From positions 96,001 through 160,000 of the IMG/VR virus record IMGVR_UViG_3300019776_000919: a DNA stretch of 64,000 bases; one strand, written 5' to 3'. A program made the position numbers and the translations under genes. Source of the stretch: a virus. Shown one piece after another: positions 6,263 through 61,883 of the stretch (positions are counted from its first letter, which is position 1; the number at the start of each line of letters is the position of its first letter). The notes under the pieces are model-generated. The model searched no databases. It was given only the letters and a program-made list of their open reading frames with translations, and was not told where the DNA came from.

Positions 6263-6335
6263 TAAAGGTCCAACTTCTACCTTTTTACTACTACATAACC
6301 GCAGGTGATACCTCTAACACCCTCGCTATGTTTAG

Positions 6336-7093: not shown

Positions 7094-7120
7094 TACGCCC
7101 TCCGTAATAGAAGTTATTCG

Positions 7121-7275: not shown

Positions 7276-7416
7276 GAAACTTTTTGCACCCATAGATCAA
7301 GGCTTGATTACTCCGCATAGGCTGCGGTTTTCTTAGTCATTCACTGTCGGTGTCACCCATCCCAGGGCCAATTCCGGGATTGATAATCTAGCCTTGATCT
7401 ATGGGCACGTTTGAAA

Positions 7417-7605
7417 TTAACCTTGTTGTTCCAAGGCTTTTGCCCAAGTCCATGCAGTCAAGAAAAGCGCAAATATTCCCAGCACTGCTACTACTAACAC
7501 AAGGATGGCAAGCCCTATGCCGGTAGGTTTGGTGGTCAAACTCATCGTAACGACAAGAGTGGCAGTACAAATTATCCACGCAAGCCAGACATTTTTCAGA
7601 GTCAT
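7417..7605 (-). CDS. small two-helix membrane protein
   Basis: 62 aa, two hydrophobic helices, GAGGTG SD. Confidence 0.6.
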   Translation of the reverse strand: MTLKNVWLAWIICTATLVVTMSLTTKPTGIGLAILVLVVAVLGIFALFLTAWTWAKALEQQG

Positions 7606-7659
7606 TATTAAACACCTCTGGTCAGAATTGAGATGAAGACTGAGAATCGAATTTAAGAT

Positions 7660-7751
7660 TGGCGGGTAAGGTGAGATTCGAACTCACGGAGCATCTTTCA
7701 ACACCCGACGACTTAGCAAGCCGCTGCCTTAGACCACTCGGCCACCTACCC
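7660..7751 (-). tRNA. tRNA-Ser(GCU)
   Basis: Class II cloverleaf with long variable arm, loop TTGCTAA, GCCA end. Confidence 0.95.
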
Positions 7752-7776
7752 TGCGCATAACTCAATCCTACAAACT

Positions 7777-7867
7777 TGGCGGAGGCGGTGAGATTCGAAC
7801 TCACGGGCCGGGGTTACCGACCGACGGTTTTCAAGACCGTTGCATTAAACCACTCTGCCACATCTCC
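7777..7867 (-). tRNA. tRNA-Ser(UGA)
   Basis: Class II cloverleaf, loop CTTGAAA, GCCA end. Confidence 0.95.
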
Positions 7868-23400: not shown

Positions 23401-23812
23401 TTATCTAACTGCATCAGGCATCAAGACCACTATTCGTGATGGCGTTATTAAAGCTACCCCTTTGACAGACAAAGACATCCTTGCTATGTCAAATGGAGCT
23501 ATTAAGAATTCATCGATGATCAATGCTAAAACCTTAGGTCCTGACAAGGGTGGATTGTTTGACCCTGCGGTTACTGGTGGATTGGATGGAGAGAAATGGG
23601 CTCATTATAAGCTCGTTGAACCTATTCCTAATCCGTTGATGGAAAGACCCATTAAATCTGTTTTGGGTTTATCAACAAAGGATTTCGAAGACATTACCTT
23701 AGGTAAGATCGGAGTACATCGGGAGGGTGATGTGTTTCATTTACACGATATAGATACTGGCAACAGAATTAAATCTGTTAAAATATCTGCTCTAAATACT
23801 GCAGCAGAATAA
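20420..23812 (+). CDS. multi-subunit RNA polymerase beta subunit fused to the N-terminal part of beta'
   Basis: RDIDPSHLG..DP..TPE, GKNLEVAYIPWKGYNHED, GDKLTGLHGNKG, LNPASVTSRVNLGQ, QPTKGG...GYME; C-terminal GGLFDP..TGG...AHYKLVEP resembles the start of beta'. Confidence 0.93.
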   Translation: MTDKINAVTGDKLTYIFSSPKEINDKVDKVLVKGLSTQFPVEGKHFRLEVDNIRAERKNYSHDDEKTAILQSKSLTYPIKARLKLIRKDTGEVVDQNPDFTLMDGFHMTEKHTLLYKGNNYGVANQLQLLPGVYTRIDNVGGLESHFNTGSGRSFKVELDPQTELFTITPDGTSSKIPVTPLLTKVFGVGPLVASKYFSPEIWDNNVAATAGKDDRFVADLYRKLVSTSKQDPHASVPKMAEQLRESLASSKLHAKTTLATLGKSFEGINEETILLAMKNLADTASNKRKEDNRDSLQFKRVQNLPDFLNTRFSKEHQVVKLIKSRMARELDRINPEKPTLKNSLVPKPFNKFLSGYLMDSNLVATPQETNPLESIENVAKVTVLGAGEGGISSDRGVPISARDIDPSHLGIIDPSRTPESGHAGIDQRFTITARRDDDGNLYARVKDNNGKIKFLSTQDMMSSTIGFPHQEHKGKVQAQIKGELGACDASEVDYWLGDTTDMYTVTTNLVPFLNSNSPGRLTMAGKAIPQALSLVNREEPLVQTTNEHGLPFVKLLAKLGTTVAPHAGTVMKVDGNSVVIKSPEGKLTSVKAVKNLPFNMKGFHDDETPLVKVGDTVQEHDQLYESNYTKNGTLALGKNLEVAYIPWKGYNHEDGLVISQSIADGLSSHHAYKVDYEISNESVPKKALLARYFPGKLTKEQLDKLDDRGFAKPGVTLEHGDPVFAVLEHREPTPSDKMLGRLHKSLVTPYKLITEVWNHDEVGKVVDAHTASKQVRFIIRSVKSLEIGDKLTGLHGNKGIVSLILPDSKMPYNKNTGKPVDILLNPASVTSRVNLGQLMETAAAKIAKATGKPYMIHNFSKGSNVAELQEELKKHGLSDAEDIVDPETNRTLGNILTGPQYFIKLYKTSDQNWSARNTGGYDANNQPTKGGEEGSKSVGYMEMLGLMGSNARKNLKEIATIKSENNQEYWDKFLQGQPLPKPKTTFVSKKFLDYLTASGIKTTIRDGVIKATPLTDKDILAMSNGAIKNSSMINAKTLGPDKGGLFDPAVTGGLDGEKWAHYKLVEPIPNPLMERPIKSVLGLSTKDFEDITLGKIGVHREGDVFHLHDIDTGNRIKSVKISALNTAAE

Positions 23813-23815
23813 TCT

Positions 23816-23840
23816 AAAAAAAGGAGGGTACGCCCTCCTT
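23816..23840 (-). terminator. intrinsic terminator between convergent genes
   Basis: AAGGAGGG-TACG-CCCTCCTT with a T-run on the minus strand. Confidence 0.75.
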
Positions 23841-23850
23841 ATTCACATGC

Positions 23851-24066
23851 TTACTCTATATATCTATCTTCATTTGCAATTTCAATATCAATTGCATCTT
23901 CACGAAGCATGTCGTCCACCTGAGAGAGCCTCAACTTATTTATCTGTCTATTATCAGAACACAACTTGCAATTTCCATGGTTCCTACAACTTCTATCAAA
24001 TCTTTTAGATCCCCGATACTCTTCTCTATCTTCTTTCCCGTATTTGATTGATTTATTTAGAGTCAT
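23851..24066 (-). CDS. small Cys/His protein (SCRNHGNC..C)
   Basis: 71 aa, antisense between the RNAP genes, with its own terminator. Confidence 0.7.
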   Translation of the reverse strand: MTLNKSIKYGKEDREEYRGSKRFDRSCRNHGNCKLCSDNRQINKLRLSQVDDMLREDAIDIEIANEDRYIE

Positions 24067-24109
24067 ATTATTTGTTCAAAATGAGGTAAAATTGTAAGGG
24101 ATAATTCAA

Positions 24110-25264
24110 ATGAATACAATAGATACCGATAGCTTAGTTACCGGCGGAGCAGCAATCAGAGATATGCTTTCTGCTATAGATGTCAAGTCTCAATTAGAAA
24201 CTCTAAAAAAAGATGTTTTGACTATTAAATCAACGTCTAAAAAAGACGCTATGATTAGGAAGATTAAATATCTTCACAGTCTGGATCAAATGGATAAAAA
24301 GCCTGATGACGCTTACATCCTGAACTACATGCCTGTCATCCCTCCTGTCAACCGTAGAACTTTATTCAAGGCTGGAAATCGTGCTGAACATGCAGATGTT
24401 ACAACTTTGTATAAGGACCACATGCTAGTTAATAGCAAACTTGGTGAAATTAAGGACGACGTTGAAGGTTCGGAATTAAAAGATCAAAGAGCTGATTTGT
24501 ACAACGGCGCTAAAGCCGTGATGGGATTAGGAGATGCTATCACTGGATCCAGTAGAGGAAAAACCCTTAAAGGTTTCTTGAAGCAGATTGCAGGAGAAAC
24601 TGGTCCTAAGACAGGTTTTTTCCAAGCCAAAATTTTAAGTAAGAAGCAAGACTTTTCGGGTAGAGCTACTATTTACGCTGAACCCAATCTTGGCTTTAAT
24701 GAAATCGCTTGCCCCGAAGATATGATCTGGGCTATGTATGAGTTTCACATCATTCGAGATTTAGTTAAGAACGGATATACTTATCCGGATGCTAAAAAAG
24801 CGGTTGAAAGTAGAAATGCGTCGGCACAATCTACTTTCAACAAGCTTATTAAGCAGATACCCATTATTGCTAACAGAGCACCTACTCTAATGCAAAGCAA
24901 CATCACTGCTCATTTCCCTGTGCCTATTAAAGGTAAAACATTGGGTATCAATCCGATACACTTACCAATGTACGCAGGGGACTTTGACGGCGATGCTTTA
25001 ACGGTACACGTACCGATTACTCCAGAGGCAATTGACGAGGCTAGAAGGAAGTTGCTTCCTGAGCATCACATGTACGACTTCCGTACAGGTTTGGGAAAAT
25101 CTCTTATCGCCCCTGGTCACGAAGCCATTTTAGGATCACACTACTTGACTGATCCAGATATGACTCAGAACGTCAGAGAATTTGATTCTGAAGCGGATGT
25201 GTTAAAAGCCCTTGAAAAAGGTGAGATTCAAAAGAATACACCCATCAAGTTACGTGGCTCTTAA
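24110..25264 (+). CDS. RNA polymerase beta' central (catalytic) fragment
   Basis: PVIPP..R, KKQDFSGRATI, NRAPTL, catalytic AGDFDGD, VHVP. Confidence 0.93.
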   Translation: MNTIDTDSLVTGGAAIRDMLSAIDVKSQLETLKKDVLTIKSTSKKDAMIRKIKYLHSLDQMDKKPDDAYILNYMPVIPPVNRRTLFKAGNRAEHADVTTLYKDHMLVNSKLGEIKDDVEGSELKDQRADLYNGAKAVMGLGDAITGSSRGKTLKGFLKQIAGETGPKTGFFQAKILSKKQDFSGRATIYAEPNLGFNEIACPEDMIWAMYEFHIIRDLVKNGYTYPDAKKAVESRNASAQSTFNKLIKQIPIIANRAPTLMQSNITAHFPVPIKGKTLGINPIHLPMYAGDFDGDALTVHVPITPEAIDEARRKLLPEHHMYDFRTGLGKSLIAPGHEAILGSHYLTDPDMTQNVREFDSEADVLKALEKGEIQKNTPIKLRGS

Positions 25265-32974: not shown

Positions 32975-34801
32975 ATGTCTGAAAAGTTAACAACTCCTGG
33001 TGCAATATTACTTAAGCACTCTATGCCCAATAAAGAAACTAGGGATGACTATGATCTATATAGACCTTTGGATAAAAAAGGCGTAGCCAACGTAGTAGCA
33101 TCTTTAATGAAGCATGGTGGACCTGAAGCCGCTGAACACATAAATAGTTTGGGTAAATTATTCTTTAACACTGCAAGTGAAATCGGGGCCTCAACCCCTT
33201 TGTCAGACTACGTTAATAATAGTGATGAAAGACACGCTATTACTAATGAGTATGAAATGAAAGTAAACAAGATTATGCTTTCAGATAAATCAAAAGCTCA
33301 AAAGAATAATGAACTTAAAGAACTTACCGGACAATACAACTTAAAGATCGAAGACCAAAACTTAGCGTTTTTAGATAGTAAGGGCTCAGTAGCTGCTAAG
33401 ATGGCTAGAACGGGTGCCCGAGGAAATAAAGCTCAGTTGGCCAGTGGTACTGCCACTCCTCTAATGTCTTTGAATGTTAAGGGTGAGTTGATCCCGTTAG
33501 TTATTAAGAAAAGCTTTGCTGAAGGTATGACTCCGGCTGAATTAATAGCTTTGAGTTACATGGGCAGAAGTTCGACTGTAATGTCTCAGTTAAGTACATC
33601 TTTACCTGGAGCATTGTTTAAAAAGCTTTCACCTACTGTATTTCATGAAGTTATTACAACAGATGATTGCGGCACTAAGAACGGAATAGATGTTCCTACT
33701 GAAGATAAATCTAGTCTGCTAGGTAGATACACTGCAGGTTATAGTGTTTTAATCACCGAACCTTACTTGAAAGATGCAATCAATTCCGGCAAGAAAAACT
33801 TAAAAGTTAGAAGTGCCTCTACTTGTGAAGCTAAAGAAGGTGTGTGTCAAAAATGTTTTGGATTAATGGCTAACGGTAGATTACCCGAGATCGGGACTAA
33901 TGTAGGCGTTATTGCTGCTCAGAGCGTTTCAGAAATTCTAACCCAGCGCATGTTAAGTACAAAGCACCAAGCCAACGTTGGAGCCCGTAAGGGTAATGCG
34001 TATGAGTTAGCCGCCAATCTTATGAATAACCCCACGGAGAACTTTAAAGATGAGGCTACCTTGTCTACTAAGAACGGCATAGTGAACGATATTAAGAAGA
34101 CTGCACTGGATGCCTCTCATGTTTACATTGACGGTAAAATGCATTTCGTACCTATTGAACAACAAGTCTTGGTTCAAAAAGGTGACACGGTAAAAATTGG
34201 ACAACCTATTTCTACCGGCACTTTGAACCCTAGAAAGTTGGTAGATTTACGAGGTATCGGGGCCGGTAGAGAATACATGGCTAAAGAACTGAGAAGTATT
34301 TACGGAGGTGATTTAGATCCTCGCCATTTTGAAATTATCGCTAAAAATTTGATTAAGTATGTAGAAGTACAAAACCCTGGTAATACTGGACTTCTACCGG
34401 GAGATAAGGTAGAAGTTAACACTATTCGTAAGTATTTGGATAAAGGATCTGCTGCTGTACATATTAATAAAGCAGAGGGTAGTGTGTTATCCAAAGGAGT
34501 TGGTAACTTAGTACCTGGCACTTTATTGGACAAAAATCACATCGATGATTTAAAAGAATTAGGAGTAGAGTCAGTATCCGTGAGCAATACTGGATTGACT
34601 GTCAAGCCTATTGTCCCAGGCCTACAAACCGCTAAGATGCTAGATAAAAATTGGGTTTCTAAATTAAGTTTTTCAAGGTTGAGAGATTCATTAAAAGAAA
34701 GCACTGCTACCGGGGCAGAAAGTGAAATTCACAGCACTGATCCTATTGCTAGTTATGTAATGGGTTCAGAGTTTGGCGAAGGCGTACATGGTAAGTATTA
34801 A
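32975..34801 (+). CDS. RNA polymerase beta' C-terminal fragment
   Basis: TGARG, DDCGT, RSASTC...GVCQKCFG Zn site, GVIAAQSVSE.LTQ trigger-helix region, RHFEII. Confidence 0.9.
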   Translation: MSEKLTTPGAILLKHSMPNKETRDDYDLYRPLDKKGVANVVASLMKHGGPEAAEHINSLGKLFFNTASEIGASTPLSDYVNNSDERHAITNEYEMKVNKIMLSDKSKAQKNNELKELTGQYNLKIEDQNLAFLDSKGSVAAKMARTGARGNKAQLASGTATPLMSLNVKGELIPLVIKKSFAEGMTPAELIALSYMGRSSTVMSQLSTSLPGALFKKLSPTVFHEVITTDDCGTKNGIDVPTEDKSSLLGRYTAGYSVLITEPYLKDAINSGKKNLKVRSASTCEAKEGVCQKCFGLMANGRLPEIGTNVGVIAAQSVSEILTQRMLSTKHQANVGARKGNAYELAANLMNNPTENFKDEATLSTKNGIVNDIKKTALDASHVYIDGKMHFVPIEQQVLVQKGDTVKIGQPISTGTLNPRKLVDLRGIGAGREYMAKELRSIYGGDLDPRHFEIIAKNLIKYVEVQNPGNTGLLPGDKVEVNTIRKYLDKGSAAVHINKAEGSVLSKGVGNLVPGTLLDKNHIDDLKELGVESVSVSNTGLTVKPIVPGLQTAKMLDKNWVSKLSFSRLRDSLKESTATGAESEIHSTDPIASYVMGSEFGEGVHGKY

Positions 34802-47370: not shown

Positions 47371-47405
47371 AAAAAAAGCCTAGCTAGTCTAGGCTTTTTT
47401 CTTTT
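47371..47405. terminator. bidirectional intrinsic terminator
   Basis: A7-GCCTAG-CTAGT-CTAGGC-T-run. Confidence 0.85.
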
Positions 47406-47407
47406 GG

Positions 47408-48907
47408 TCATTTCAAAATTAAAACCCAGCGATCTTGACCGCAATCTTTGATTTTGAAATAACCATTTTTGTACATAATTTCAGATTCAGTCATTTCTTT
47501 CGGATATTTTTCTTTAAAGATATCTTCTAGCTTATGGCGTTGAAATGAAACTCTATTGAAACGTCTTTGACCCTTGCACCAAAAGTATCCAGGCTGACTG
47601 GAGCTAGAATAAGCAAAACCATTTTTCCAGTATACACCTCCAATACTCCATCTTCTATCGGAATAAGATACTATTCTTTTAGGGTTTTGATTTCTAATGA
47701 AGTGTTTAAGTAACTTAGAAAATCCACCTATTACTGAAGTACTGGTTGAATACCTAAGCAGTTCATAACAATCTTCTTCTTGGTCTTCAAATCTAAACTT
47801 AGAAAAAGTCATGCATCCCACGAGATTATTTTCGTAGAATAGTCCGTACCTGAACGAAGAAGAATATGCATGCCCTTGAATATGATTGTTCGATTCAAAC
47901 TCTTTAACAACTTGATTAGTGAGTTGTTTTATTTCACATTTTCTCGCAAAGACTTTCTTTGTCGAAGTTAGTATAGAACGGAGTTTGTTTTTGATAATGT
48001 CTTGTTTTTCAAGCCACTCATCTTCTAATACATGGATTATTCTGATCCCTGCTTTTAAATAAGATTCTGTTTTTTCAAACAAAGAATTTGAAGATGCCAT
48101 GGCCCCTTCAAACTTATCCCATTTAGAAGAAGGATCTCTGTGGAAGAATAATCCATTATATTCTATACCCAGGCTCAGTGAAGGAATGTATATATCCAAT
48201 TCCATTTTTAAGCCTTCTACTGGTTTTACTCTACTAATAGCATCTGGCCTCAGGCCCTTTATAAATTCGAAGATTTCCAGCTCCGGACTGGATTTTCTAG
48301 TCAAAGAACAATGAGAGCATCTTTTACCGCTTAGGTAGTCCCCGGGCCTAATCATATAGGATCCGTGAACTTTACAATTAATTTCCGATAGTGTTTTACT
48401 GCTTACGTACTTTGTATTTTCAAAAGTATCGAGGCCAATATGAACAGAAGAAGCTTTTTCGATAAAATCATTGATGTCATCTGCTTGATCTTTAGCTCGT
48501 TTTTTAATGTTACATTTCGAGCAAAGAAATCTTCTTTTTTTTGAGATTACAGAAATTGGTTGCGTAGAAAAATCACCGTGTTCCTTACATGTAATATTTA
48601 CGTATGTATGGGAATCTACGTATGACACTTTGCTATAGCTACAATTCATCCAAGTATCCGGATAAATCTGTTTAATTTCTTCTATAAATGACTCGGTATT
48701 TCTCTTAGCACTTATAGCGCATTGCCCGCAAGCAATACCATTTTTCCTAGTTACGTTTTTAAACGTACGAGTAACTTCGCCATGACGGGGGCAAATTACT
48801 ATTGATTCGGAGTACGACCCGTTATATGTAAACTTTGAGAAGTCATATTCAGGCCACATAGCCTTCATTTTTGAAATGGCTTCTTCGGGTTTTATTTTTA
48901 TAGGCAT
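47408..48907 (-). CDS. Hef-like free-standing homing endonuclease (C..HG Zn repeats, PD-(D/E)XK, GNAT-like C-terminus)
   Basis: ICPRHG/TCKEHG/NCKVHG plus CxxC; ELDIYIP....IEYNG; ELLRY...IGGFSKLL...SYSDRRW. Confidence 0.75.
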   Translation of the reverse strand: MPIKIKPEEAISKMKAMWPEYDFSKFTYNGSYSESIVICPRHGEVTRTFKNVTRKNGIACGQCAISAKRNTESFIEEIKQIYPDTWMNCSYSKVSYVDSHTYVNITCKEHGDFSTQPISVISKKRRFLCSKCNIKKRAKDQADDINDFIEKASSVHIGLDTFENTKYVSSKTLSEINCKVHGSYMIRPGDYLSGKRCSHCSLTRKSSPELEIFEFIKGLRPDAISRVKPVEGLKMELDIYIPSLSLGIEYNGLFFHRDPSSKWDKFEGAMASSNSLFEKTESYLKAGIRIIHVLEDEWLEKQDIIKNKLRSILTSTKKVFARKCEIKQLTNQVVKEFESNNHIQGHAYSSSFRYGLFYENNLVGCMTFSKFRFEDQEEDCYELLRYSTSTSVIGGFSKLLKHFIRNQNPKRIVSYSDRRWSIGGVYWKNGFAYSSSSQPGYFWCKGQRRFNRVSFQRHKLEDIFKEKYPKEMTESEIMYKNGYFKIKDCGQDRWVLILK

Positions 48908-48926: not shown

Positions 48927-49175
48927 TTAATCCGGAATTTTTTCAGTATTTACAGTAACATTATCTGGATTAATAATTTCCAAATCACATACGTGGAGAC
49001 AAACAATATCCCCTTTGTTGAATGCGCCGACTTTTTCTTCTGCCCTGGCCCTTACAAACCAAGTTCCTAAATCTTGTATTACCGTAAATTTCTTATTAGT
49101 CCAATAAGAAAACATTGTGTTCGTATATTTGACTAGAGTTCCAGGCTCGAACTTAGGCATTAAATCTTCATTCAT
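48927..49175 (-). CDS. SH3-like array member 14 (no QLELF tail)
   Basis: KFEPGTLVKY...KKFTVI...KGDIV.L....LE. Confidence 0.8.
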   Translation of the reverse strand: MNEDLMPKFEPGTLVKYTNTMFSYWTNKKFTVIQDLGTWFVRARAEEKVGAFNKGDIVCLHVCDLEIINPDNVTVNTEKIPD

Positions 49176-49395
49176 TAAACAGCTCCATTTGAAGTTTTTC
49201 TTTTTTCTTTACAGGTTCGAATCTATACTCATAGTAGTTTGCAATTGATCCACTCTCTGACTCACACTTATATAGACACCTTCCTGGATAAGAAGTTCTG
49301 CTCAATCTTTTCAGTACTTTAAAGGTTTTACCGATTAGTTCAGTATCGCCTTTTACATAGACAACCAAGTCCCCAACATTAAATTTAAAAGACAT
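49168..49395 (-). CDS. SH3-like array member, C-terminal QMELF
   Basis: FNVGDLVVY...QMELFNE. Confidence 0.85.
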   Translation of the reverse strand: MSFKFNVGDLVVYVKGDTELIGKTFKVLKRLSRTSYPGRCLYKCESESGSIANYYEYRFEPVKKKEKLQMELFNE

Positions 49396-49619
49396 TAAAA
49401 CAATTCCAGTTGAAGTTTTTCTTTTTTCTTTACGAGTTCAAATCTAGATTCATAGTATTCTAAAAGCTTACCCGTTTCTTCCGATTTGCATCGGTAAAGA
49501 TTATTGCCTGACACAAAGCTTTCTCTTAATTGCCGTATTATTTGGTAAGTCTTACCTATTAAATGTGAGTGGCCATCCACATAGGTAACTAAGTCACCAA
49601 CTTTGAATTTAAACGACAT
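49395..49619 (-). CDS. SH3-like array member, C-terminal QLELF
   Basis: FKVGDLVTY...QLELF. Confidence 0.85.
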   Translation of the reverse strand: MSFKFKVGDLVTYVDGHSHLIGKTYQIIRQLRESFVSGNNLYRCKSEETGKLLEYYESRFELVKKKEKLQLELF

Positions 49620-49849
49620 TAGAATAACTCCAGCTGAACATTGATAGGTCTAATATTTTCCAGATATAACTTTACCATATCACCTTTTTTATAAACGGTA
49701 TCAGTAATGTCTTGATTACATACTGCACTTACCGTTTCAAATCCAAAAATAGAATTTGTTTTTATTACGGTAAATTTTTTCAAATGCCAGGTTGGATAAT
49801 CGGGATTGACAAATTGAACTTCATCATTTTCCTTAAAGGTCTTAATCAT
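49619..49849 (-). CDS. SH3-like array member, C-terminal QLELF
   Basis: FKENDEVQF...QLELF. Confidence 0.85.
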   Translation of the reverse strand: MIKTFKENDEVQFVNPDYPTWHLKKFTVIKTNSIFGFETVSAVCNQDITDTVYKKGDMVKLYLENIRPINVQLELF

Positions 49850-50078
49850 TGAATAACTCTAATTGACAGCGAGTCTTTTTTTCAATCGCTAATTCCAATT
49901 TACTATTACGTATACCAACAAAGACACCTTGTGTATATCTTTCATTAATATCCTCCATACAAACTACCCAAGAAATATCATGCCCGGGATTGGTAACTTT
50001 AAATCGTTTATTAAAAAGTTGCCCTTGGGAATTATCGGTGTATATAACTACATCGTCAATTTTGAACTTATAGGTCAT
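49842..50078 (-). CDS. SH3-like array member, C-terminal QLELF
   Basis: FKIDDVVIY...QLELFND. Confidence 0.85.
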   Translation of the reverse strand: MTYKFKIDDVVIYTDNSQGQLFNKRFKVTNPGHDISWVVCMEDINERYTQGVFVGIRNSKLELAIEKKTRCQLELFND

Positions 50079-50307
50079 TAAATAATTCCAACTGGAGCCG
50101 TTCTTTTCGAGGATTACATCGTTCCAAATTAATATTTGCTAGACGCACCGTCATCCCCGCCTTAACCTCAGGGAGGATATCTTCTAAACAAATTAAATCG
50201 GAAGTGAGGCCCTTAGATCGGATAACTCTAAACTTTTTGTCAAACCAGCCTGCGTTTAATTTTGAAACGTATCTAACTATATCGTCTTTGTTAAAGATAG
50301 GGTTCAT
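50068..50307 (-). CDS. SH3-like array member, C-terminal QLELF
   Basis: FNKDDIVRY...QLELFNDL. Confidence 0.85.
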   Translation of the reverse strand: MNPIFNKDDIVRYVSKLNAGWFDKKFRVIRSKGLTSDLICLEDILPEVKAGMTVRLANINLERCNPRKERLQLELFNDL

Positions 50308-50549
50308 CAGAATAGTTCTAATTGACTGCGAATTCTATCCGCCTTATCCGCTTTAAATATTTCTAATCTATCACTAAACAGTCTCACTCTAGAACTCTTT
50401 CGATAAACCTCATCAATGTCTTCTAGACATATTGCAAGCGTACTTAATTCATCATATTTAATAATTTCAAATGTTTTTTTGTGCCAATTCTTTGCACTTT
50501 CAAAATTATATTTGACTACATCACCAGTTTTAAATTTATGTTTTTTCAA
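50307..50549 (-). CDS. SH3-like array member, C-terminal QLELF
   Basis: Likely TTG start at 50549 (TTGA overlap): MKKHKFKTGDVVKY...QLELF. Confidence 0.8.
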   Translation of the reverse strand: MKKHKFKTGDVVKYNFESAKNWHKKTFEIIKYDELSTLAICLEDIDEVYRKSSRVRLFSDRLEIFKADKADRIRSQLELF

Positions 50550-50776
50550 AATAATTCCAATTGAGGCCACGGTTTCTTTTTCAGATACTGATTCTAAGTA
50601 TTCATTAAAAAGAGGTATATGATCCCCTTTTGAAAAAAATTCGCAACGTTTTCTAGGCATTCTACGATAGAAGTTGCCCCCTTAAAGGTAATAACCTTAA
50701 AAGTTTTATTGTTGAAGTATTTGTACTTAGGATTATTGAACTTAACAGTGACACCTTCTGCAAATACTTTTGTCAT
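50546..50776 (-). pseudogene. SH3-like array member broken by two compensating frameshifts (or recoded)
   Basis: Start and KKPWPQLELF* are in one frame with an internal TAG at 50594-50596; the family-like middle KGDHIPLFNEYLESV is in the -1 frame. Confidence 0.7.
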
Positions 50777-51012
50777 TGAAACAGTTCCAGTTGAGTTTTT
50801 TTGTTTTTAGATTCAACTAACTCCAAGAAGGTATGATCGAGAGTCACCAAGGATCCTTGTTTAAAGTATTCACTAACATCTTCTAAACAGATTGATTTTG
50901 ACATAATATGCCCCGGCATACAAATCTTAAATTTTTTATCAAACCAATGCTCACAATGCTTAGTTTGCCGAATATATCTAACTACATCACCCTCTTTAAA
51001 TTTATAGTTCAT
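50773..51012 (-). CDS. SH3-like array member, C-terminal QLELF
   Basis: FKEGDVVRY...QLELFQ. Confidence 0.85.
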   Translation of the reverse strand: MNYKFKEGDVVRYIRQTKHCEHWFDKKFKICMPGHIMSKSICLEDVSEYFKQGSLVTLDHTFLELVESKNKKTQLELFQ

Positions 51013-51241
51013 TAAACAGTTCCAGTTGAGGAGAGATTTTTTTATGTTCTATTATCTCCAAATCCTCATTTGCAAGAGTTACAGGGGAGTGTTTTACGTA
51101 CTTAGAGGTAACATCTTCTAGACACCTTACATTGGACGCATAAGGATTAGAGTTAATAATCGTGAATGTTTTATTCAGCCACTCTTTATAATTAGGATTA
51201 TTGAACTTAACAATAACGCCTTCTGCAAATACTTTTGTCAT
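51002..51241 (-). CDS. SH3-like array member, C-terminal QLELF
   Basis: FAEGVIVKF...QLELFNEL. Confidence 0.85.
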   Translation of the reverse strand: MTKVFAEGVIVKFNNPNYKEWLNKTFTIINSNPYASNVRCLEDVTSKYVKHSPVTLANEDLEIIEHKKISPQLELFNEL

Positions 51242-51462
51242 TGAAACAATTCCAATTGAGAGGATTTTCTCGAAACTAATTCTAAGTTCGTAGTCATAAA
51301 CTTTACCGTTTCATTTTTAAGCCAGCTACTCGGAAGATCTTCTAGAGTGGTAACACTCGTAGTGTTAGGATCAGAAGCAACAACTATAAATTGTTTATTG
51401 TACCAATCCTCGTATTTAATATTGATAAACTTAACAGTATCTCCTTTATAGAACATCTTCAT
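51238..51462 (-). CDS. SH3-like array member, C-terminal QLELF
   Basis: FYKGDTVKF...QLELFQ. Confidence 0.85.
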   Translation of the reverse strand: MKMFYKGDTVKFINIKYEDWYNKQFIVVASDPNTTSVTTLEDLPSSWLKNETVKFMTTNLELVSRKSSQLELFQ

Positions 51463-51691
51463 CGAATAACCCCAATTGGAGCGAGGGTTTTTTCTCTTTC
51501 ACCAGCTCTAAGTAAAGGTTCAGAGTGCGTGCACTAGCACCTTTTGGGTAAATACTATTAATAAATTCTAAGCACACTAGAGTGGATTTACCATCATCAG
51601 AATAGAGCACTTTAAATTTTTTATTAAACCACTCTGGATATATATTATTCGTAAACCTAACAATATCGTCTTTTTTAAATCTTGGTTGCAT
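51446..51691 (-). CDS. SH3-like array member, C-terminal QLGLF
   Basis: FKKDDIVRF...QLGLFDEDVL. Confidence 0.85.
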   Translation of the reverse strand: MQPRFKKDDIVRFTNNIYPEWFNKKFKVLYSDDGKSTLVCLEFINSIYPKGASARTLNLYLELVKEKKPSLQLGLFDEDVL

Positions 51692-51924
51692 TAAAACAGT
51701 TCCAATTGTGGAGTTGGTTTTTTTCTCTGAGGTACCAGTTCTACATTGCTGATTGAAATGCGGGCTATGCTATCAATAGGGTAACCACTGCTAACAAAAT
51801 TTAAACACCTAGTAATACACGTATTATCTTCACAATCAATAATTTGAAATGTTTTATTAAACCAGTTTGGATATGTTTTATTATTAAACCTAACAATATC
51901 CCCTTTTGTAAATGCTTTGTTCAC
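51691..51924 (-). CDS. SH3-like array member, C-terminal QLELF
   Basis: FTKGDIVRF...QLELF. Confidence 0.85.
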   Translation of the reverse strand: MNKAFTKGDIVRFNNKTYPNWFNKTFQIIDCEDNTCITRCLNFVSSGYPIDSIARISISNVELVPQRKKPTPQLELF

Positions 51925-52184
51925 TAAAATAACTCCAGCTGACTTTTAGTAATGAATTCTTGCGAATGTACTAACTCTATATGATTTTCATTGAATAGGA
52001 TTATAATTGATCCCTTAAGACGAAAAATATCTATGTTTTCCAGGCATTCTGCCCTAAAGTAATAACTGCCGTTTGTATATTGAAAAACTTTAAGTATCTT
52101 GAAAAATTTACCATGCCAAGAAACATTGAAATTAACAGCAATATACTTTACAGTATCCCCTGCATTGAATTTAGGTGCCGACAT
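51924..52184 (-). CDS. SH3-like array member 1, C-terminal QLELF
   Basis: FNAGDTVKY...QLELF. Confidence 0.85.
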   Translation of the reverse strand: MSAPKFNAGDTVKYIAVNFNVSWHGKFFKILKVFQYTNGSYYFRAECLENIDIFRLKGSIIILFNENHIELVHSQEFITKSQLELF

Positions 52185-53154
52185 CTATGTCAATACCTTC
52201 TATCTCTGTAGGTATTTGTATTTGAAAACGATTTAAATAACGTTGGAAAATTGGAGCTGAATAGTCCACCATTGTCGAGGATTTTTTCTCAATAGAATCT
52301 GTACAAAATCCGAATTTTACCCACTCACTATTAGAACTTTTATTGATGATGGAGAACCCTCTACTATCCATATACCGAGAAATCCAATTAGGCACTTCTC
52401 GTCTTGTCCACTCCCCCTTATACCCTTTATTTAGCAAAAAATACAAAGGCAAGACTGGACTATTAAATCCAGATGCAGACTCCAAGGCATTAAATTCCTC
52501 TATGATTCCCCCTCTGCTTGGGCTGATATCGGGGATTAAGCAAGCCTTTTGCTTATACTCATCCGGAAATGAAAAAAAGTCGCATGGATATCCTTGATAC
52601 GTGACTGCAATAGTTTCTGAACTGACGCTCGATTGCGTGATATTAACTCCGTGAGAAATACGACTCATAAAGGAGCTACAAGATCCCGATTTAATTTCTG
52701 GTATTCTTACATCTTGCAGGTTAAGTTTGATAAGGTCAGGGTACATTCTGTTAAATAAATTTTGACCAGAATGTTTTTTATTAAATCTAAATTCAAACTC
52801 TTCTAAAAACGCTTTCGCCAAAGCTTGTAGATAAACCTCGTTATTGGTCAAATAACCTATGTAATAGGTTACTGATTCGTACGGTAAAGGTTTAGGTAGG
52901 CCCGGTACATCTTGTACATTAAAAAGACGAAAGTAGTTCTCCTTGCTTAAACTAAGTGGCCAACTACCGGCAGGCGTACGGCCTTTTACCAAATTCCATC
53001 TATATTTAATCACCAATAACTGCAAGACGCTAACAATAGAAGATCGGAGAATTGTATCCGATAGGTTTCTAGCGCAGTTTACCGGATTGATAGATGTTAC
53101 ATATAAATTAGGCCTGAGAGGATATTTAGACCATTTTGGGTGGTTGTTATTCAT
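52171..53154 (-). CDS. hypothetical protein, distantly pyrimidine-dimer-glycosylase-like
   Basis: NLYVTSINPVNCARNL.D, EFEFRFNKKH and WTRREVPNW resemble that family; weak. Confidence 0.5.
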   Translation of the reverse strand: MNNNHPKWSKYPLRPNLYVTSINPVNCARNLSDTILRSSIVSVLQLLVIKYRWNLVKGRTPAGSWPLSLSKENYFRLFNVQDVPGLPKPLPYESVTYYIGYLTNNEVYLQALAKAFLEEFEFRFNKKHSGQNLFNRMYPDLIKLNLQDVRIPEIKSGSCSSFMSRISHGVNITQSSVSSETIAVTYQGYPCDFFSFPDEYKQKACLIPDISPSRGGIIEEFNALESASGFNSPVLPLYFLLNKGYKGEWTRREVPNWISRYMDSRGFSIINKSSNSEWVKFGFCTDSIEKKSSTMVDYSAPIFQRYLNRFQIQIPTEIEGIDIDVGT

Positions 53155-53605: not shown

Positions 53606-54187
53606 TCACATTTCTCCGGTAGAATTAGATTTGATTCGCTTAGATTTTTCGACGGGGATTTTCAGTAATTTATCCTGTATTTCCGACCATTCGAAAGGTT
53701 TCATTTCGTTACAGTCAACTCCAACATCCATTCTCCTAAGTGCAGGATCAAAAGGCAAAGTGCCATGATGATGCCCGTGAAGGTTGAAAGCCCCATGATG
53801 GGATCTATTCCATGAAAGCTGTGGGAAGTGAGATAGAGTAACTTCGATCTTCTGTATTTTTATCTCATCAATTCTAAACTTTATAGAAACTGGATTGAAG
53901 AATCCGACGATTGGTACATTGTCGTGATTGCCGGTAATTAGACAAATACGTCCGTTGAATCGACTGAGCCAATGCAGGTATTTTCCCAAAGTTTCTGTAT
54001 CATTTTTGACGAATAAAAAGTCTCCGAGAAAGAAAACATCATCATGAGGCTTAACAATTTTGTTATGAGCTTCAATCAAACCTTCGTTCATTTCATCTAC
54101 CGATGAAAATGGTCGATTGCAGTATTTGATGATGTTGGCATGGTTGATGTGATGATCAGATGCAAAGAAAATATTAGGTGTTTTCAT
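53606..54187 (-). CDS. calcineurin-like metallophosphoesterase
   Basis: SDHH.NHANII, LGD, GNHD, SHFP, HGHHH, DVGVD. Confidence 0.9.
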   Translation of the reverse strand: MKTPNIFFASDHHINHANIIKYCNRPFSSVDEMNEGLIEAHNKIVKPHDDVFFLGDFLFVKNDTETLGKYLHWLSRFNGRICLITGNHDNVPIVGFFNPVSIKFRIDEIKIQKIEVTLSHFPQLSWNRSHHGAFNLHGHHHGTLPFDPALRRMDVGVDCNEMKPFEWSEIQDKLLKIPVEKSKRIKSNSTGEM

Positions 54188-54244: not shown

Positions 54245-55546
54245 TTAACCTTTGCGGGAACTGGCAAGGTTACCGATACCACGACCATCAAAGGCTTGTA
54301 CTTCGTAACCCAAAATGGTTTCAACATTGGCAAGAATTTCACCAACACGGGTCGCATCAAAATCAATGAACTTGCCATCCACCAACATTTGGTAAACGGC
54401 TTGGTTGGAAATCTGATCGGTACAGCTGACCATCACTTTGACACGGGGCCTGTATTTGGTCCCCAGATACTGAAGATCTTGACTGATTCGCTTGCGAAGA
54501 CCGGCCCAATCCAAGTGAGCATACCGGATCGTCCCTTGGTATTTGCCCGGGACGTTTGTCCTGTCTTGGCCAAGGGTCCAATAATCGTCACACTCAACCC
54601 CATCCTTCGCCAGAACAGGCCCTGCCCCGTGGCGAGTGATGTAAGGTCGAGTGACGTACAAAACTTCTTCGATGTCGCAGCCTTCCTCGTCGCACGTCTT
54701 CACGACGTTCTGAAGACCCGTATTGCTGCGGGTCAAATGAGGGAAGTATTCGCCACGATTCTGATCAAGGAGCAGCCCTTGAGCGCCTTCGAAGACCACA
54801 AGTTCCGATGTGGGGAAGAACACGTTGGTATTCTTGATTTCATCAGAGCCAGAAGAAACAATTGTGCCCCGAGTTTCACCCAACCGCATCGTCTTCATGA
54901 AAGCATACGGATACTTCAGGAACTCGGTCAACGCTTTGGAAAGCACCCGATCAGAAGTCCAATAGCCCAAAGGATCAGGGTTCAAGAAGTCGTTCAAACC
55001 ACCCTCAAGGTGAAGTTTTCGGATTTGATTGAGGTAGTACCCTTGAATCTCTCCGGTAAACGACACCAGGTACGAGTCGTTCATCAAGTCTTCGGTATGA
55101 AGACCTGGAGCTTGCTTATTCAGCAAACGGGCCACAGTCTCACCAATACCATATCCGACCGAACCGTGGCGTTTGTCGCCACGTCCCATTTCTTTGACTT
55201 GGTTCAACGCAATGTCCCAGGGGGACACCACAGGGCATTCAGGGTGGACCCGAATCAAGTTCGGGTGAATACCTTTGTCCACCAGATCGTTGCGCTCAGA
55301 CCAAGCGTAATGAGGGTTCACCAAAACGTCCTTGGTATACCAGGTATTTCGGCCAAGCAACGTGCCTGATCCGAAGTTCTGATGGACGTGCCGCACGCCG
55401 TTCACGGTGACAGTATGACCCGCTTGAGAACCACCGTTGAAACGGATCACATCTTTGATTGCTTTTTCATTGCACACCTTGGCGACGGTGGCACCCTTGC
55501 CTTCATCACCAAAATTGGCACCGATAACTACGATAGCTTTTTGCAT
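54245..55546 (-). CDS. purA: adenylosuccinate synthetase-like protein
   Basis: GANFGDEGKG, RFNGGSQAGHT, HGSVGYGIG, FEGAQGLLLD, TRSNTG, TRHGAGP. Confidence 0.85.
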   Translation of the reverse strand: MQKAIVVIGANFGDEGKGATVAKVCNEKAIKDVIRFNGGSQAGHTVTVNGVRHVHQNFGSGTLLGRNTWYTKDVLVNPHYAWSERNDLVDKGIHPNLIRVHPECPVVSPWDIALNQVKEMGRGDKRHGSVGYGIGETVARLLNKQAPGLHTEDLMNDSYLVSFTGEIQGYYLNQIRKLHLEGGLNDFLNPDPLGYWTSDRVLSKALTEFLKYPYAFMKTMRLGETRGTIVSSGSDEIKNTNVFFPTSELVVFEGAQGLLLDQNRGEYFPHLTRSNTGLQNVVKTCDEEGCDIEEVLYVTRPYITRHGAGPVLAKDGVECDDYWTLGQDRTNVPGKYQGTIRYAHLDWAGLRKRISQDLQYLGTKYRPRVKVMVSCTDQISNQAVYQMLVDGKFIDFDATRVGEILANVETILGYEVQAFDGRGIGNLASSRKG

Positions 55547-55584
55547 GTTCCTTGCCCTCAATAAGGATGGTTGATTACACTATT

Positions 55585-55614
55585 CTTATACCATTTTTGA
55601 ACAACTGAATTGAA
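55585..55614 (-). promoter_or_regulatory. conserved promoter
   Basis: Exact TTCAAT-N15-TGGTATAAG. Confidence 0.8.
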
Positions 55615-57616: not shown

Positions 57617-58678
57617 TCAATAAACATCGGTTTCGGTAAGAGTCAAAGTTTCCCAACGAGGGGTTCCGTATGAACTCCGCTTAACTTTTTCCCACTCTTT
57701 AAAAGCCTCGATAGCGTCTTCCTGTGCGGGTGATATTGCCCAAGTTATAAATGCATCGGGGATATCGGGATTCAAGCGAAGTTTTACCCCGTGAATGTCC
57801 CCTAGCAATTCCCGGCCCAAAGCCTTGATCATCTCAAGCACATGCTTGATAGAAGCTTTCTTTTCAACCAGTAGGCTCGGACAAATCTTTGCAGTTCTTG
57901 CAGGAATAGCTAGAGGCTTTTCCCCGATGCCTCGACTATACTGCCACCCGCCCTCCAGAATAACCCCGTGGGTTTTCGGGTTTATGAGAATTGTTCCCGG
58001 AGAGATATCCAGGTTCAAAACTTTTCGAATCTGCATCAAGCAAGCCAAGCTATGCAGCCTTGACATAATCCAAACCACATGTTTCGGGTCCAGCTTACGT
58101 TTCTCCAAAACGTGATTCAATGCCAAAGTGGCCCTATCTTTTGGAAGAATGCTGAGCACGCCCCCGTTTTCCAGTACTCGGAATTCCGTCTGCAACCTTG
58201 AAGCGATGTACAGATTTTCATCCGAAGCCATTTCCGGGGGTAGCGGAGTAGACCAAAATTTCAAGTTTTTCTTGGCTTGTTCAACCAAGTCAAGATTATC
58301 TCTGGTAAATTCAGACCAGACATAATACTTGCCCATGTAACGAATACAAGCCCCGCCTTGATCATCTGATTTCAAAAACGACACTTCTAAGAAGCTGGTG
58401 GGCGTCGAAAAAGATTTGTAGTTATCTCCCCCCCAAACCCCGGCATTGATGTGCGTTTCCGCCAAATCCTTCAACTGCTTGATGTGCTCGAAAACTTTTG
58501 TAGCGAAAACTTTATCGTTTTCCGATGCGTGTTTGTCAGGATGCCATTTGCTAGACAACCTCCGCCATACCTGCGTTGTCTGAGATTGAGAATTAGGGAA
58601 CATCATGTAATAAAACTTGATGTCGAGTACTTGATTTCCGTTAAGGGAAAGAATTTGTTCCGGAGTCAAAGTCAGCAT
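57617..58678 (-). CDS. J-domain plus protein-kinase-like fold protein
   Basis: WRRLSSKWHPDK (J-domain HPD); HVVWIMSRL...NLDISPGTILI....HG..L.GGW degenerate kinase core. Confidence 0.75.
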   Translation of the reverse strand: MLTLTPEQILSLNGNQVLDIKFYYMMFPNSQSQTTQVWRRLSSKWHPDKHASENDKVFATKVFEHIKQLKDLAETHINAGVWGGDNYKSFSTPTSFLEVSFLKSDDQGGACIRYMGKYYVWSEFTRDNLDLVEQAKKNLKFWSTPLPPEMASDENLYIASRLQTEFRVLENGGVLSILPKDRATLALNHVLEKRKLDPKHVVWIMSRLHSLACLMQIRKVLNLDISPGTILINPKTHGVILEGGWQYSRGIGEKPLAIPARTAKICPSLLVEKKASIKHVLEMIKALGRELLGDIHGVKLRLNPDIPDAFITWAISPAQEDAIEAFKEWEKVKRSSYGTPRWETLTLTETDVY

Positions 58679-59846: not shown

Positions 59847-60926
59847 TTAAAGAGATTTCAGATGTTGATAGAAATAGAGCGCATTCCTTGCTAGGAATTC
59901 GCTTGAATTATTGCGGGAAGTAGTTCGCAACGTGTCTAGGTTAGGAGATGAATTTATCAACCCTTCTACCTCCGACATTAAATCTTCCGCCATTTTAATG
60001 GCAACAACCGGCTCTATTTTGCCAGTCTTTATATCCAGAAGAATCTTTGATTCTGTCATTGGATACGTGACATATCCTTTCAGCAGGATTTCCTTTGCTT
60101 GCAAGACTAATCGATAAGAATGCAAGGCATGTTTAGAGTCAAAACCATTTTCTAAAGCTGCATGGGATCTGCCAGCATAGGTCCTGGTTAAAGCTTCCAG
60201 CATTCTATATAGATTGTCAAAACTGGATTTTTTATTTACGGGCTTTTCATAAACCAAGAAATGGGATTTATCTTCTGCCATCGGTAATTTGTGAGTTACC
60301 GCAAGGGAGTTGAAAAAATCCTCAGGCATTGAGGCATGCACATTAGAAATCGATTTTCTATTGGCATCCATCCACGCCATCATTTCTTTGAATTTCTGAA
60401 GTCGAAGCAGTCTTTTACCAGTCGATTCTAGGCTTTTCTTGGAGAACGCAATCATGGGGGCTAGATCTATGGCAGTAACCGCTTCCCCGAACCTATTCAA
60501 AAAATCTATTGTCAAGGCCCCTTTTTTAAATCTAGAATCGAATTGTTTCGCATCATGTCGACTCTTGATAAAAGACATTGTCTCAATATTTTGAATAATT
60601 CCCCGTAAATATCCGTCCAGTAGAAATGGTAAACTTACAAAAGTTACTTCGATTGTGTTCTTGTCAGACGGTTTAGATATGCCTTCCCCAGTATTCTGAA
60701 TAGAACCATCTACGTTATAACGCCTACTATTAATTTCAGGTATGTTGCCGACTGCGATCTCTTCCAATCGAGGCATATAAACAGCAACAAAGTCCCAGTC
60801 ACTATCTTCAGTATTTGTTCCGTACATTCTGCTACCAAACGGCGTAAGCATAAGAATGTCCGGATGAACTTGATTCAGATTAGTCACCAATAATTCAGTG
60901 ACTCCCTCTGGGTTAAATAAAAGCAT
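59847..60926 (-). CDS. Pol-beta-superfamily nucleotidyltransferase (RlaP-like)
   Basis: FGSRMYGT....SDWD; C-terminal D.KHALH..RL...LLDIKTG. Confidence 0.82.
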   Translation of the reverse strand: MLLFNPEGVTELLVTNLNQVHPDILMLTPFGSRMYGTNTEDSDWDFVAVYMPRLEEIAVGNIPEINSRRYNVDGSIQNTGEGISKPSDKNTIEVTFVSLPFLLDGYLRGIIQNIETMSFIKSRHDAKQFDSRFKKGALTIDFLNRFGEAVTAIDLAPMIAFSKKSLESTGKRLLRLQKFKEMMAWMDANRKSISNVHASMPEDFFNSLAVTHKLPMAEDKSHFLVYEKPVNKKSSFDNLYRMLEALTRTYAGRSHAALENGFDSKHALHSYRLVLQAKEILLKGYVTYPMTESKILLDIKTGKIEPVVAIKMAEDLMSEVEGLINSSPNLDTLRTTSRNNSSEFLARNALYFYQHLKSL

Positions 60927-60945: not shown

Positions 60946-60975
60946 CTTATACCAATATTACAACTTTATATTGAA
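60946..60975 (-). promoter_or_regulatory. conserved promoter
   Basis: Exact TTCAAT-N15-TGGTATAAG. Confidence 0.8.
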
Positions 60976-61883
60976 TACTGCTTAAATTCAATTAGTTTTC
61001 TAAATTGAGTCCATCCAAGTGAATTACCAGACATCAAAGTTGGCCGCTCGTAGATAGAAGGGGTAAGCTGATGTTCCATCGGAGACGCATGGAAAGGATT
61101 ATCCTCATTGTCAATATCCATTCCATAAGTCAGTTTTTTAAACAAAGCCAAATCATCTTCTAATGTAGAAGTGACCCCATGATGAGTCTTATAAGAAGTT
61201 CTGGCGCAACGAGATGCAGACACTGCTAAGGCGTTGTTTAATCCTAGCGTACGAAATTCTTCTTCTGAAACGTAAGGTAGATGCCACTCCCCTTGTTTTA
61301 GCTCCTTAGGAGTCGATTCGTTCAGGGCAGTTTTCACTGCTTGGGTTAAGTATATCATTTCATCTTGGGCATCGGGGTGATCGCGTAAATGGAAAAAGTT
61401 TTCAAAAGTAGTACCAGTTAGGACCACTTTAATAGTCGAAGCCCATTCGAGTGGGCGTGATGCCCATTGTTTATGTACCCCTAACGCAGTCAATTTTTTA
61501 CAGCCTTCAGCCACTGCGTTAACCATCTCCATCCAAATTCGATTAGCCTCTTGTTGATCCTCTTCTGAAAGATTGTCTTGAGAAGCTCTCATTCCCGGTT
61601 GATTTTTACCCCAACGAACTGGAAAAACCGGTGCTTTTTGAATAACATCAATTTGCTTCAATGTAGGGATTGCTCGTGAAGAGCTGGCGTTTTTAGAAAA
61701 TACCCGATGAGTATTTAATTCTGCAAGAATGAATCTGGGAAATTCTAATTCTAAAGTAGTAGCTCTATGTAGATGAAGGTTTGTGTAATAGCTGTCTGCG
61801 ATTACCTTAGCCGTAATAATTGACGTAGAAGGTAAAACAGGCATCTCAGTTTTTAAAGGGTAATTTGGAAAAGAGTATGGCAT
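60966..61883 (-). CDS. thyX: FAD-dependent thymidylate synthase
   Basis: ELNTHRVFSKNASSSRAIP, LRDHPDAQ.E, RCARTSY, HASPMEH. Confidence 0.85.
   Translation of the reverse strand: MPYSFPNYPLKTEMPVLPSTSIITAKVIADSYYTNLHLHRATTLELEFPRFILAELNTHRVFSKNASSSRAIPTLKQIDVIQKAPVFPVRWGKNQPGMRASQDNLSEEDQQEANRIWMEMVNAVAEGCKKLTALGVHKQWASRPLEWASTIKVVLTGTTFENFFHLRDHPDAQDEMIYLTQAVKTALNESTPKELKQGEWHLPYVSEEEFRTLGLNNALAVSASRCARTSYKTHHGVTSTLEDDLALFKKLTYGMDIDNEDNPFHASPMEHQLTPSIYERPTLMSGNSLGWTQFRKLIEFKQYSI

Follow-up and report, generated by a model that had tools for sequence, protein, structure and literature searches.

Why would a bacteriophage maintain fourteen consecutive, strongly diverged mini-genes, almost all of which encode the same five residues at or near the C-terminus? 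The question is raised by an array at positions 48927-52184 on the minus strand of a 64,000-nucleotide stretch (hereafter, the window) of the virus record IMGVR_UViG_3300019776_000919. The window comprises bases 96001-160000 of the complete 169,713-bp genome of an uncultured phage with direct terminal repeats; coordinates follow the window numbering unless marked as genome or contig. The reading that we favor, with a probability of roughly 0.6, is that the array encodes two-module proteins of about 75 residues that dock on the sliding clamp of the host (DnaN), displace the clamp's clients, and leave their barrels exposed. The first module would be a KOW/SH3-like barrel with diverged loops, and the second a basic flexible linker followed by the pentapeptide Q-[L/M]-[E/G]-L-F.

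According to the list of open reading frames (ORFs) and the alignments, the array consists of 14 consecutive head-to-tail paralogous genes of 74-86 codons each, with stop and start overlapping by 1-17 nucleotides (nt) at every junction. The encoded proteins share the scaffold F-x-x-G-D-x-V-x-[YF] ... W-x-x-K-x-F-x-[VI] ... C-L-E-D ... K-G ... L-E-L-V, so that a preliminary description of this DNA, which had proposed 14 coupled ORFs with a common scaffold and divergence elsewhere, is borne out by the ORF list, the alignments, and the junction overlaps. Pairwise identity among the copies ranges from 16% to 59% (mean approximately 32%), and the only younger-looking pairs are copies 12 and 13 (59%) and copies 5 and 7 (48%). 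Judging from these alignments, the copies are old, diverged paralogs.

Numbered in the direction of transcription, copy 1 (51924-52184; 86 amino acids [aa]), the start of which overlaps the end of an upstream 327-aa gene, and copy 2 (51691-51924; 77 aa; GTG start) both end in QLELF immediately before the stop codon, as do copy 8 (50307-50549; 80 aa), copy 11 (49619-49849; 76 aa), and copy 12 (49395-49619; 74 aa), the last forming the youngest pair with copy 13. A few residues follow the motif in copy 3 (51446-51691; 81 aa; QLGLF then DEDVL), copy 4 (51238-51462; 74 aa; QLELF then Q), copy 5 (51002-51241; 79 aa; QLELF then NEL), which was used for folding and docking, copy 6 (50773-51012; 79 aa; QLELF then Q), copy 9 (50068-50307; 79 aa; QLELF then NDL), copy 10 (49842-50078; 78 aa; QLELF then ND), and copy 13 (49168-49395; 75 aa; QMELF then NE). 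Copy 14 (48927-49175; 82 aa) has the same barrel (hidden Markov model [HMM] E 9e-27) and no clamp-type tail, and is acidic, with an isoelectric point (pI) of approximately 5.2 for the barrel part and 5.0 for the whole protein.

Copy 7 (50546-50776) is broken. Its start frame is closed by a TAG at 50594-50596 after 60 aa; the middle part that resembles the family is encoded in the -1 frame, and QLELF followed by a stop reappears in the start frame at 50563-50546. The frame changes first at a T7/A4/G4 run and then at an A5 run. Copy 8 begins with the TTG at position 50549, which overlaps the stop of copy 7, and not with the ATG of a 117-aa ORF (50307-50660), which is composed of copy 8 and the -1-frame part of copy 7. 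The first frame change in copy 7 occurs at U UUU UUU, a classic -1 slippery heptamer, and a single -1 slip at this U7 run leads through the rest of the barrel and then through copy 8 with no stop between them. The product predicted from such a slip could be a two-barrel protein ending in QLELF, and proteins with two or three barrels do occur naturally among the relatives (P0020, P0024, and P0025). The frame change could equally represent a decaying copy or a homopolymer sequencing error.

Among the 12 intact motif-bearing copies, the motif Q[LM][EG]LF is QLELF in ten, QLGLF in one, and QMELF in one, and it lies 0-5 residues from the C-terminus. Together with the QLELF-stop kept by copy 7, 13 of the 14 copies carry the motif, matching the count given in the preliminary description, in which the motif was placed near the C-terminus after a basic linker, with one instance behind a frameshift. 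Across 17 instances (these 13 and four from a related phage described below), the motif alternates only between L and M at position 2 and between E and G at position 3, with Q1, L4, and F5 constant. Whereas 14 ORFs of the whole phage end in a C-terminal Q[LM]xLF, residue-shuffled ORFs yielded 0.25 on average (maximum of 2 in 300 shuffles). The codons vary: glutamine is encoded by CAA in nine copies and CAG in three, position 2 by CTG, TTG, TTA, or ATG, position 3 by GAA, GAG, or GGG, position 4 by TTA, CTG, TTG, or CTA, and phenylalanine by TTT in eight and TTC in four.

This codon variation had been taken earlier as a sign that the peptide, and not a DNA repeat, is under selection. The variation is real, and selection on the peptide holds for other reasons; what that argument overlooked is a role of the same bases as a ribosome-binding site. 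The start codon of the next copy follows the phenylalanine codon of the motif within a few bases, and at 10 of the 13 junctions the Leu-Glu codons (YTG GAR) give a GGAG or GGAA word starting 9-12 nt before the next start, a distance typical of a Shine-Dalgarno sequence. In nine of these ten the distance is 11-12 nt. Because the Leu-Glu codons of the motif are thus also the Shine-Dalgarno sequence of the next gene, synonymous variation alone is no proof of peptide selection. It is conceivable that the motif has been kept mainly at the RNA level, with CAR-YTG-GAR-YTR-TTY serving as the initiation region of the next copy (Shine-Dalgarno sequence plus A/U-rich spacer) and the peptide having no partner at all. 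Such a role would also explain, as we infer from the codons, why glutamate (GAR) is found at position 3 over the commoner serine or aspartate. We nevertheless regard an RNA-only explanation as highly improbable and as insufficient for the data, because Q1, L4, and F5 are constant even though their codons change at first and third positions, because the three junctions that lack a GGAR word still keep the peptide, and because the motif is also found where no coupled gene follows. It is present in a 196-aa gene elsewhere in the genome, 82 nt before the next start, and in a 140-aa gene, and QMELF is retained by the last copy of the related four-copy array, where the neighboring gene is convergent. 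At the level of sequence, these observations show that selection acts on the peptide despite its dual coding.

How the motif is presented was addressed with an AlphaFold2 model of copy 5 built on a 13-member alignment. The model is a confident five-strand barrel with a mean predicted local distance difference test (pLDDT) score of 88 and values above 90 for residues ~5-65. From approximately residue 66 onward, the pLDDT falls to 50-73 and no secondary structure is formed. Since this tail is of low confidence and lies outside the fold, the motif is predicted to sit in a flexible, exposed tail and not to be buried, a point on which the preliminary description had made its proposal depend. The linker between barrel and motif is flexible, mostly basic, and approximately 8-12 residues long. 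The structural neighbors of the barrel include the KOW domain of NusG/Spt5, ribosomal L24/L26-type proteins, PsaE, NdhS, and the SH3-like domain of KIN17, with template modeling (TM) scores of 0.55-0.70 and weak Foldseek E-values of about 1e-2, as well as many uncharacterized phage barrels. The array barrels have the five-strand topology in common with these proteins but do not belong to any of their Pfam or PHROG families: a Pfam search with eight array copies at E-values up to 1 gave no match, including to the curated KOW (PF00467) and SH3 families, and no PHROG match was found for the array copies. A distant three-barrel relative gave the sole hint from sequence, an SH3_15 match that did not reach the cut-off (E 0.0026). 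On the model, the array barrels are therefore KOW/SH3-like by likeness of fold and not by family membership, in agreement with the SH3-like fold proposed at the outset. Their loops have diverged strongly between copies. DNA binding by charge was considered as a general property of the barrels and rejected, since their net charge ranges from -2 to +4 and the pI of the barrel part from 5.2 to 9.4.

The identity of the partner is suggested by the motif itself. The clamp-binding consensus of bacteria is QL[S/D]LF, in which the glutamine is read in subsite 2 and the Leu-Phe in the hydrophobic subsite 1, and QLGLF is the clamp motif of Escherichia coli Pol II (PMC3716654). The QLELF peptide has been reported to bind the clamps of E. 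coli and Bacillus subtilis in vitro in fluorescence polarization assays. The array motif falls within this pentapeptide class (Gln at position 1, aliphatic at 2, variable at 3, Leu/Met at 4, and Phe/Leu at 5), with the variants QLGLF and QMELF included, and its predicted disorder and its position 0-5 residues from the end give the accessibility that such motifs have. The initial likening to clamp-pocket pentapeptides of the type QL[SD]LF thus stands, both by consensus and by the reported binding of QLELF.

We modeled the complex of copy 5 with E. coli DnaN, as the preliminary description had proposed. The prediction scored 0.68, against 0.00 for the best of three controls; 58 of 80 solved complexes attain this mark, as do 2 of 110 mismatched pairs. 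The runs agreed in at least 96% of contacts, with a partner pLDDT of at least 78. From copy 5, only residues 70-76 (S-P-Q-L-E-L-F) make contacts, that is, the tail alone enters the canonical cleft; on DnaN, the contacted residues are 172, 174-177, 242, 247, 278, 280, 320, 344, 346, 360, and 362-366. These include Gly174, Leu177, Pro242, Val247, Val360, and Met362 of the pocket seen in solved peptide complexes (PMC3716654). We consider it fairly probable that the array tails dock on the beta-clamp.

If so, the clamp would be that of the host. Searches of the complete genome with PF00712, PF02768, PF02916, and PF00705 (DnaN, gp45, and PCNA types) gave no match, with controls detected; these searches cover recognizable family members, and a very divergent clamp could escape them. 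As no recognizable clamp is encoded by the phage, the clamp partner, if there is one, is the host's. Besides a primase-helicase and a split DNA polymerase of family A, neither of which carries the motif, the phage encodes sigma factors and the beta and beta-prime subunits of an RNA polymerase.

The tail is also found outside the array. The 196-aa protein mentioned above (genome 69838-70428, L001:9838-10428; minus strand), encoded between a PD-(D/E)XK nuclease and the primase-helicase, ends exactly in QLELF-stop, for which the chance expectation is ~7e-4 ORFs per genome. The 140-aa protein (genome 48655-49077, L004:8655-9077; minus strand) ends in QLEMF-stop; its gene adjoins that for ribonucleotide reductase and is two genes from a Pnkp-type kinase-phosphatase-ligase (RNA repair). 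A weaker tail match, QIILF, ends a 272-aa protein (genome 4814-5632). Searches with the 196-aa and 140-aa proteins returned no Pfam or PHROG match, no homologs, and no fold; for the former, a single-sequence AlphaFold2 model had a pLDDT of 32, and Atlas look-alikes remained below a useful score. The Arash gene at the position analogous to that of the 196-aa gene was considered as its counterpart and rejected as unrelated. These occurrences show, as far as sequence goes, that the tail is portable, with the same peptide on unrelated phage proteins. Because two unrelated orphan proteins share the tail with the array, the clamp seems to serve the phage as a landing site of general use.

The distribution of the family was examined with a profile search of 1.84 billion representative proteins, which returned only approximately 14 weak matches beyond the window copies and one other phage with the same design of barrel and tail. 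In that phage (L009, known from metagenome contigs), two weak matches and two neighboring genes form a syntenic array of four copies, all four of which end exactly in Q[LM]ELF. The capsid protein of this relative is 96% identical to that of the window, whereas the identity of its array proteins is only 28-36%. The same genomic island, without the array, is present in a phage whose capsid protein is 83% identical (L016), and no family member was found in Salmonella phage Arash, Vibrio phage D69, or three complete uncultured relatives. A search of relatives for clamp-type C-termini with a back-translated pattern returned background counts only, with eight matches in the phage's own genome as a positive control. 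Neither a megablast search with the region nor a tblastn search with one copy found a match in 50,697 GenBank phage records, and a word-based protein search with the array proteins retrieved only the window's own proteins. The variation in array size that had been suggested for inspection therefore does exist, with 14 copies, four copies, or none among relatives. Because the array is absent from some relatives and smaller in another, it is an accessory cassette of variable size in a narrow lineage. Arash also has eight mini-proteins of ~60-70 aa encoded in tandem (gp73c-gp81c; L007:47003-48743), which have a G-D-x-V start and probably a small-barrel fold. The block was tried as a homologous array on account of this start and rejected: hhalign gave a probability of 31% over 18 columns, there was no HMM match, and no common tail is present.

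The remaining matches of the profile search share the barrel and carry another tail, K-S-H-[Y/W]-P-x-W-W, which is not clamp-like. Thus, with regard to the concern that homologs might generally lack the motif, the nearest homologs all keep it (4/4), whereas distant homologs have a different C-terminus. On a 9.5-kb Logan contig of SRR14194048 (L013:2174-9530), a C-terminal K-S-H-[Y/W/L]-P-x-W-W is shared by at least seven small proteins, in one of them in the form H-H-W-P-D-W-M. Two of these tail carriers match the barrel family strongly, a third weakly (E 0.01), and three have only the G-D-x-V start; a further carrier of 112 aa has no match to the barrel-family profile. The carriers are located beside genes for an amidoligase, a GATase, and a RimK-type ATP-grasp protein. 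A search of IMG/VR with the tail pattern K-S-H-Y-P-x-W-W gave no match, and the known carriers are on short contigs. As read from these sequences, K-S-H-[Y/W]-P-x-W-W is another portable C-terminal tag. The set resembles the array in consisting of tandem, coupled, fast-diverging small proteins, mini-barrels among them, with one short tail that an unrelated protein also carries; the tail itself, however, is unlike known motifs, whereas that of the array is a clamp-binding peptide with experimental support.

The occurrence on one contig of a second common tail, on distant homologs with the same barrel and on a neighbor that the profile does not match, lends some weight to a different explanation of the array, in which the pentapeptide serves as an address tag specific to the lineage. 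Its reader would then be not the clamp but, for example, a hub protein of the phage, a protease, a modifying enzyme, or a route for packaging or sorting, and the likeness of the pentapeptide to clamp motifs would be coincidental. The position of the array next to the capsid gene also speaks for an address tag, but the two are convergent and so are not co-transcribed. The coincidence itself would be demanding, since an exact match to the clamp consensus is expected by chance at only ~1e-5 to 1e-6 per five-residue tag, and the observed substitutions, M at position 2 and G at position 3, are ones that the clamp is known to tolerate. The reported binding of QLELF to clamps and the docking model, which had clean controls and put the tail in the canonical cleft, also argue against this explanation, and the seven copies that extend beyond the phenylalanine are at odds with readers that need a free C-terminal carboxylate. 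We therefore consider an address tag of this kind unlikely.

A further alternative is suggested by the transcription genes of the phage. The phage belongs to a little-studied group with Salmonella phage Arash, which has been called an orphan phage (PMC10585845), and with Vibrio phages D69, D148, and D181; its RNA polymerase beta subunit is ~50% identical to theirs, and these relatives infect Gammaproteobacteria. A multisubunit RNA polymerase and sigma factors are common to all of them. In the window, the RNA polymerase genes are at 20420-25264 and 32975-34801; the beta subunit (1130 aa) is unsplit, beta-prime is divided into two or more pieces, and the sigma factors are encoded elsewhere in the genome. 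The array proteins might then be clamp-docked factors that couple transcription to replication in the manner of T4 gp33/gp55 or Mu MuC, with the KOW-like barrel binding the phage RNA polymerase or replisome, which the clamp on newly replicated DNA would activate or guide. The polymerase subunits and sigma factors of the phage, the association of KOW barrels with polymerases in NusG and Spt5, and the use of clamp-binding tails for late transcription by MuC and by gp33/gp55 are in keeping with this idea. However, one job does not need fourteen diverged copies, the relatives with the same polymerase (Arash, D69, and the three complete uncultured genomes) lack such proteins, and neither gp33 nor the KOW family is matched by the array in sequence. 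A coupling factor is, in our view, distinctly unlikely.

Docking on the host clamp thus remains the preferred reading, and its steps would be as follows. The copies, set among nucleotide-metabolism genes on the minus strand, would be translated in a coupled manner, the Leu-Glu codons of each motif supplying the Shine-Dalgarno sequence of the next copy; this anatomy is observed in the DNA, and the expression is presumed. On the host DnaN ring, each tail is predicted to enter the hydrophobic cleft that lies between domains II and III. The phage would meanwhile replicate with its own family-A polymerase and primase-helicase, both free of the motif. As the likeliest primary effect, a dozen abundant tail-bearing proteins would occupy both clefts of the host clamp and might out-compete host clients such as Pol III, Hda, the repair polymerases, MutS/L, and ligase, so that host replication and repair would be shut down or redirected. 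The free barrels would be exposed on the DNA-loaded clamp and could act as diversified adaptor modules. Given docking, we would put a role mainly as competitors at about even odds, and a role mainly as adaptors at a little under even. A more specific version is a tool belt of loop-diversified mini-binders that ride the host clamp along DNA, each capturing or blocking a different host replication, repair, or defense factor or DNA feature; this version is speculative and rather doubtful. The concept from which the analysis started, a constant clamp anchor on a variable small barrel, gains in silico support from the fold, the exposed tail, the consensus, the docking model, and the motif of close homologs, but does not extend to the distant homologs with their non-clamp-like tail.

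Several points weigh against this reading. The docking result may be a recall of solved beta-clamp/peptide complexes by the prediction method; the model is evidence of likeness and not of affinity, and E. coli DnaN serves in the model as a stand-in for the clamp of the actual host. The conservation of the motif DNA can be explained in part by its use as the ribosome-binding site of the next gene. The K-S-H-[Y/W]-P-x-W-W tails of distant homologs indicate, at least by sequence comparison, that the barrel is not intrinsically a clamp partner. The array is also dispensable in the lineage, as judged from its absence in the genomes of the 83%-capsid phage, Arash, D69, and the three complete relatives. 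Finally, a role purely as competitors fails to explain why 14 old, diverged copies have been kept.

Docking on the clamp through short motifs and single phage proteins that bind the clamp are already known. Bacterial clamp clients (Pol II with QLGLF, UmuC with QLNLF, B. subtilis Pol I with QLELF, and Pol Y1 with QLDLF) use the same pentapeptide class, usually C-terminal and disordered, and the cleft is the same as that in our model. They are, however, single large host enzymes, whereas the phage array encodes 13 tiny, non-enzymatic paralogous barrels in tandem. MuC/Mor of phage Mu and gp33/gp55 of T4 are likewise small phage proteins with short terminal clamp-docking motifs, and over-expressed MuC is toxic through competition at the host clamp (PMC12867686). 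In contrast to the array proteins, MuC/Mor are helix-turn-helix transcription activators encoded by single genes, and gp33/gp55 bind the T4 phage's own clamp, whereas the predicted target of the barrels is the host clamp. Neither pair forms an array or resembles the barrels in sequence or fold, and a clamp-docking tail is all that they have in common with them. In Staphylococcus phages, single small proteins (gp168 of Twort and ORF240 of G1) reportedly target the host DnaN and thereby stop host replication; they are products of single genes of another family, from phages of Gram-positive bacteria. A tandem family of clamp-anchored mini-barrels was not described in the literature that we searched, in line with the preliminary remark that no array of this kind was known. 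If the docking is true, the phage can flood or re-equip the central DNA hub of its host with a set of small proteins, and the barrels could serve as natural clamp-tethered binders or clamp inhibitors.

As to genomic context, the array is part of an island of 15 kb on the minus strand that has been inserted behind the capsid gene, with which the array is convergent. The 327-aa gene directly upstream (52171-53154, minus strand) overlaps copy 1, has a homolog in the array-less relative L016, and is probably in the same transcript as the array; Pfam and PHROG searches gave no assignment of its function. Farther upstream, a PurZ-type adenylosuccinate-synthetase homolog (54245-55561, minus strand) matches PHROG 1211 ("2-aminooxy adenylosuccinate synthetase"; E 7e-56), and its best matches among solved structures are ordinary bacterial PurA. 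Companion genes of the island at 53606-54187, 57617-58678, 59847-60926, and 60966-61883 comprise a metallophosphoesterase, a kinase, a nucleotidyltransferase, and a thymidylate-synthase-like gene. These genes may serve the modification of DNA bases, with 2-aminoadenine as a conceivable product.

The array is separated from the capsid gene by a gene for a 499-aa HNH/homing-endonuclease-like protein (47408-48907, minus strand), whose DUF723 zinc-ribbon repeats are joined to a C-terminal Mom-like domain (PHROG 559, E 1e-106). A 637-aa homolog occupies the same place in L016, and the gene is absent from the four-copy relative L009. A terminator-like hairpin with a 12-bp stem (47372-47400) is located between the capsid gene (plus strand) and the minus-strand block containing the array, and another terminator-like hairpin is at 54229-54206.

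Ten copies of the word TGGTATAAG are present in the window against 0.66 expected, at positions 1600, 7914, 11848, 16740, 17387, 27319, 32910, 55585, 57585, and 60946, always on the minus strand and before minus-strand gene blocks. The word is probably an early or middle promoter of the phage, of the extended -10 type. The copy nearest upstream of the array (55585-55593, minus strand), an extended -10 look-alike before the PurZ-type gene, is a candidate start of the transcript or transcripts that reach the array. The window also contains four transfer RNA genes (Gly, Asn, and two Ser) within 4494-7867 and a transfer-messenger RNA-like gene (5936-6267) with the tag A-N-D-S-S-Y-V-Q-A-L-A-A.

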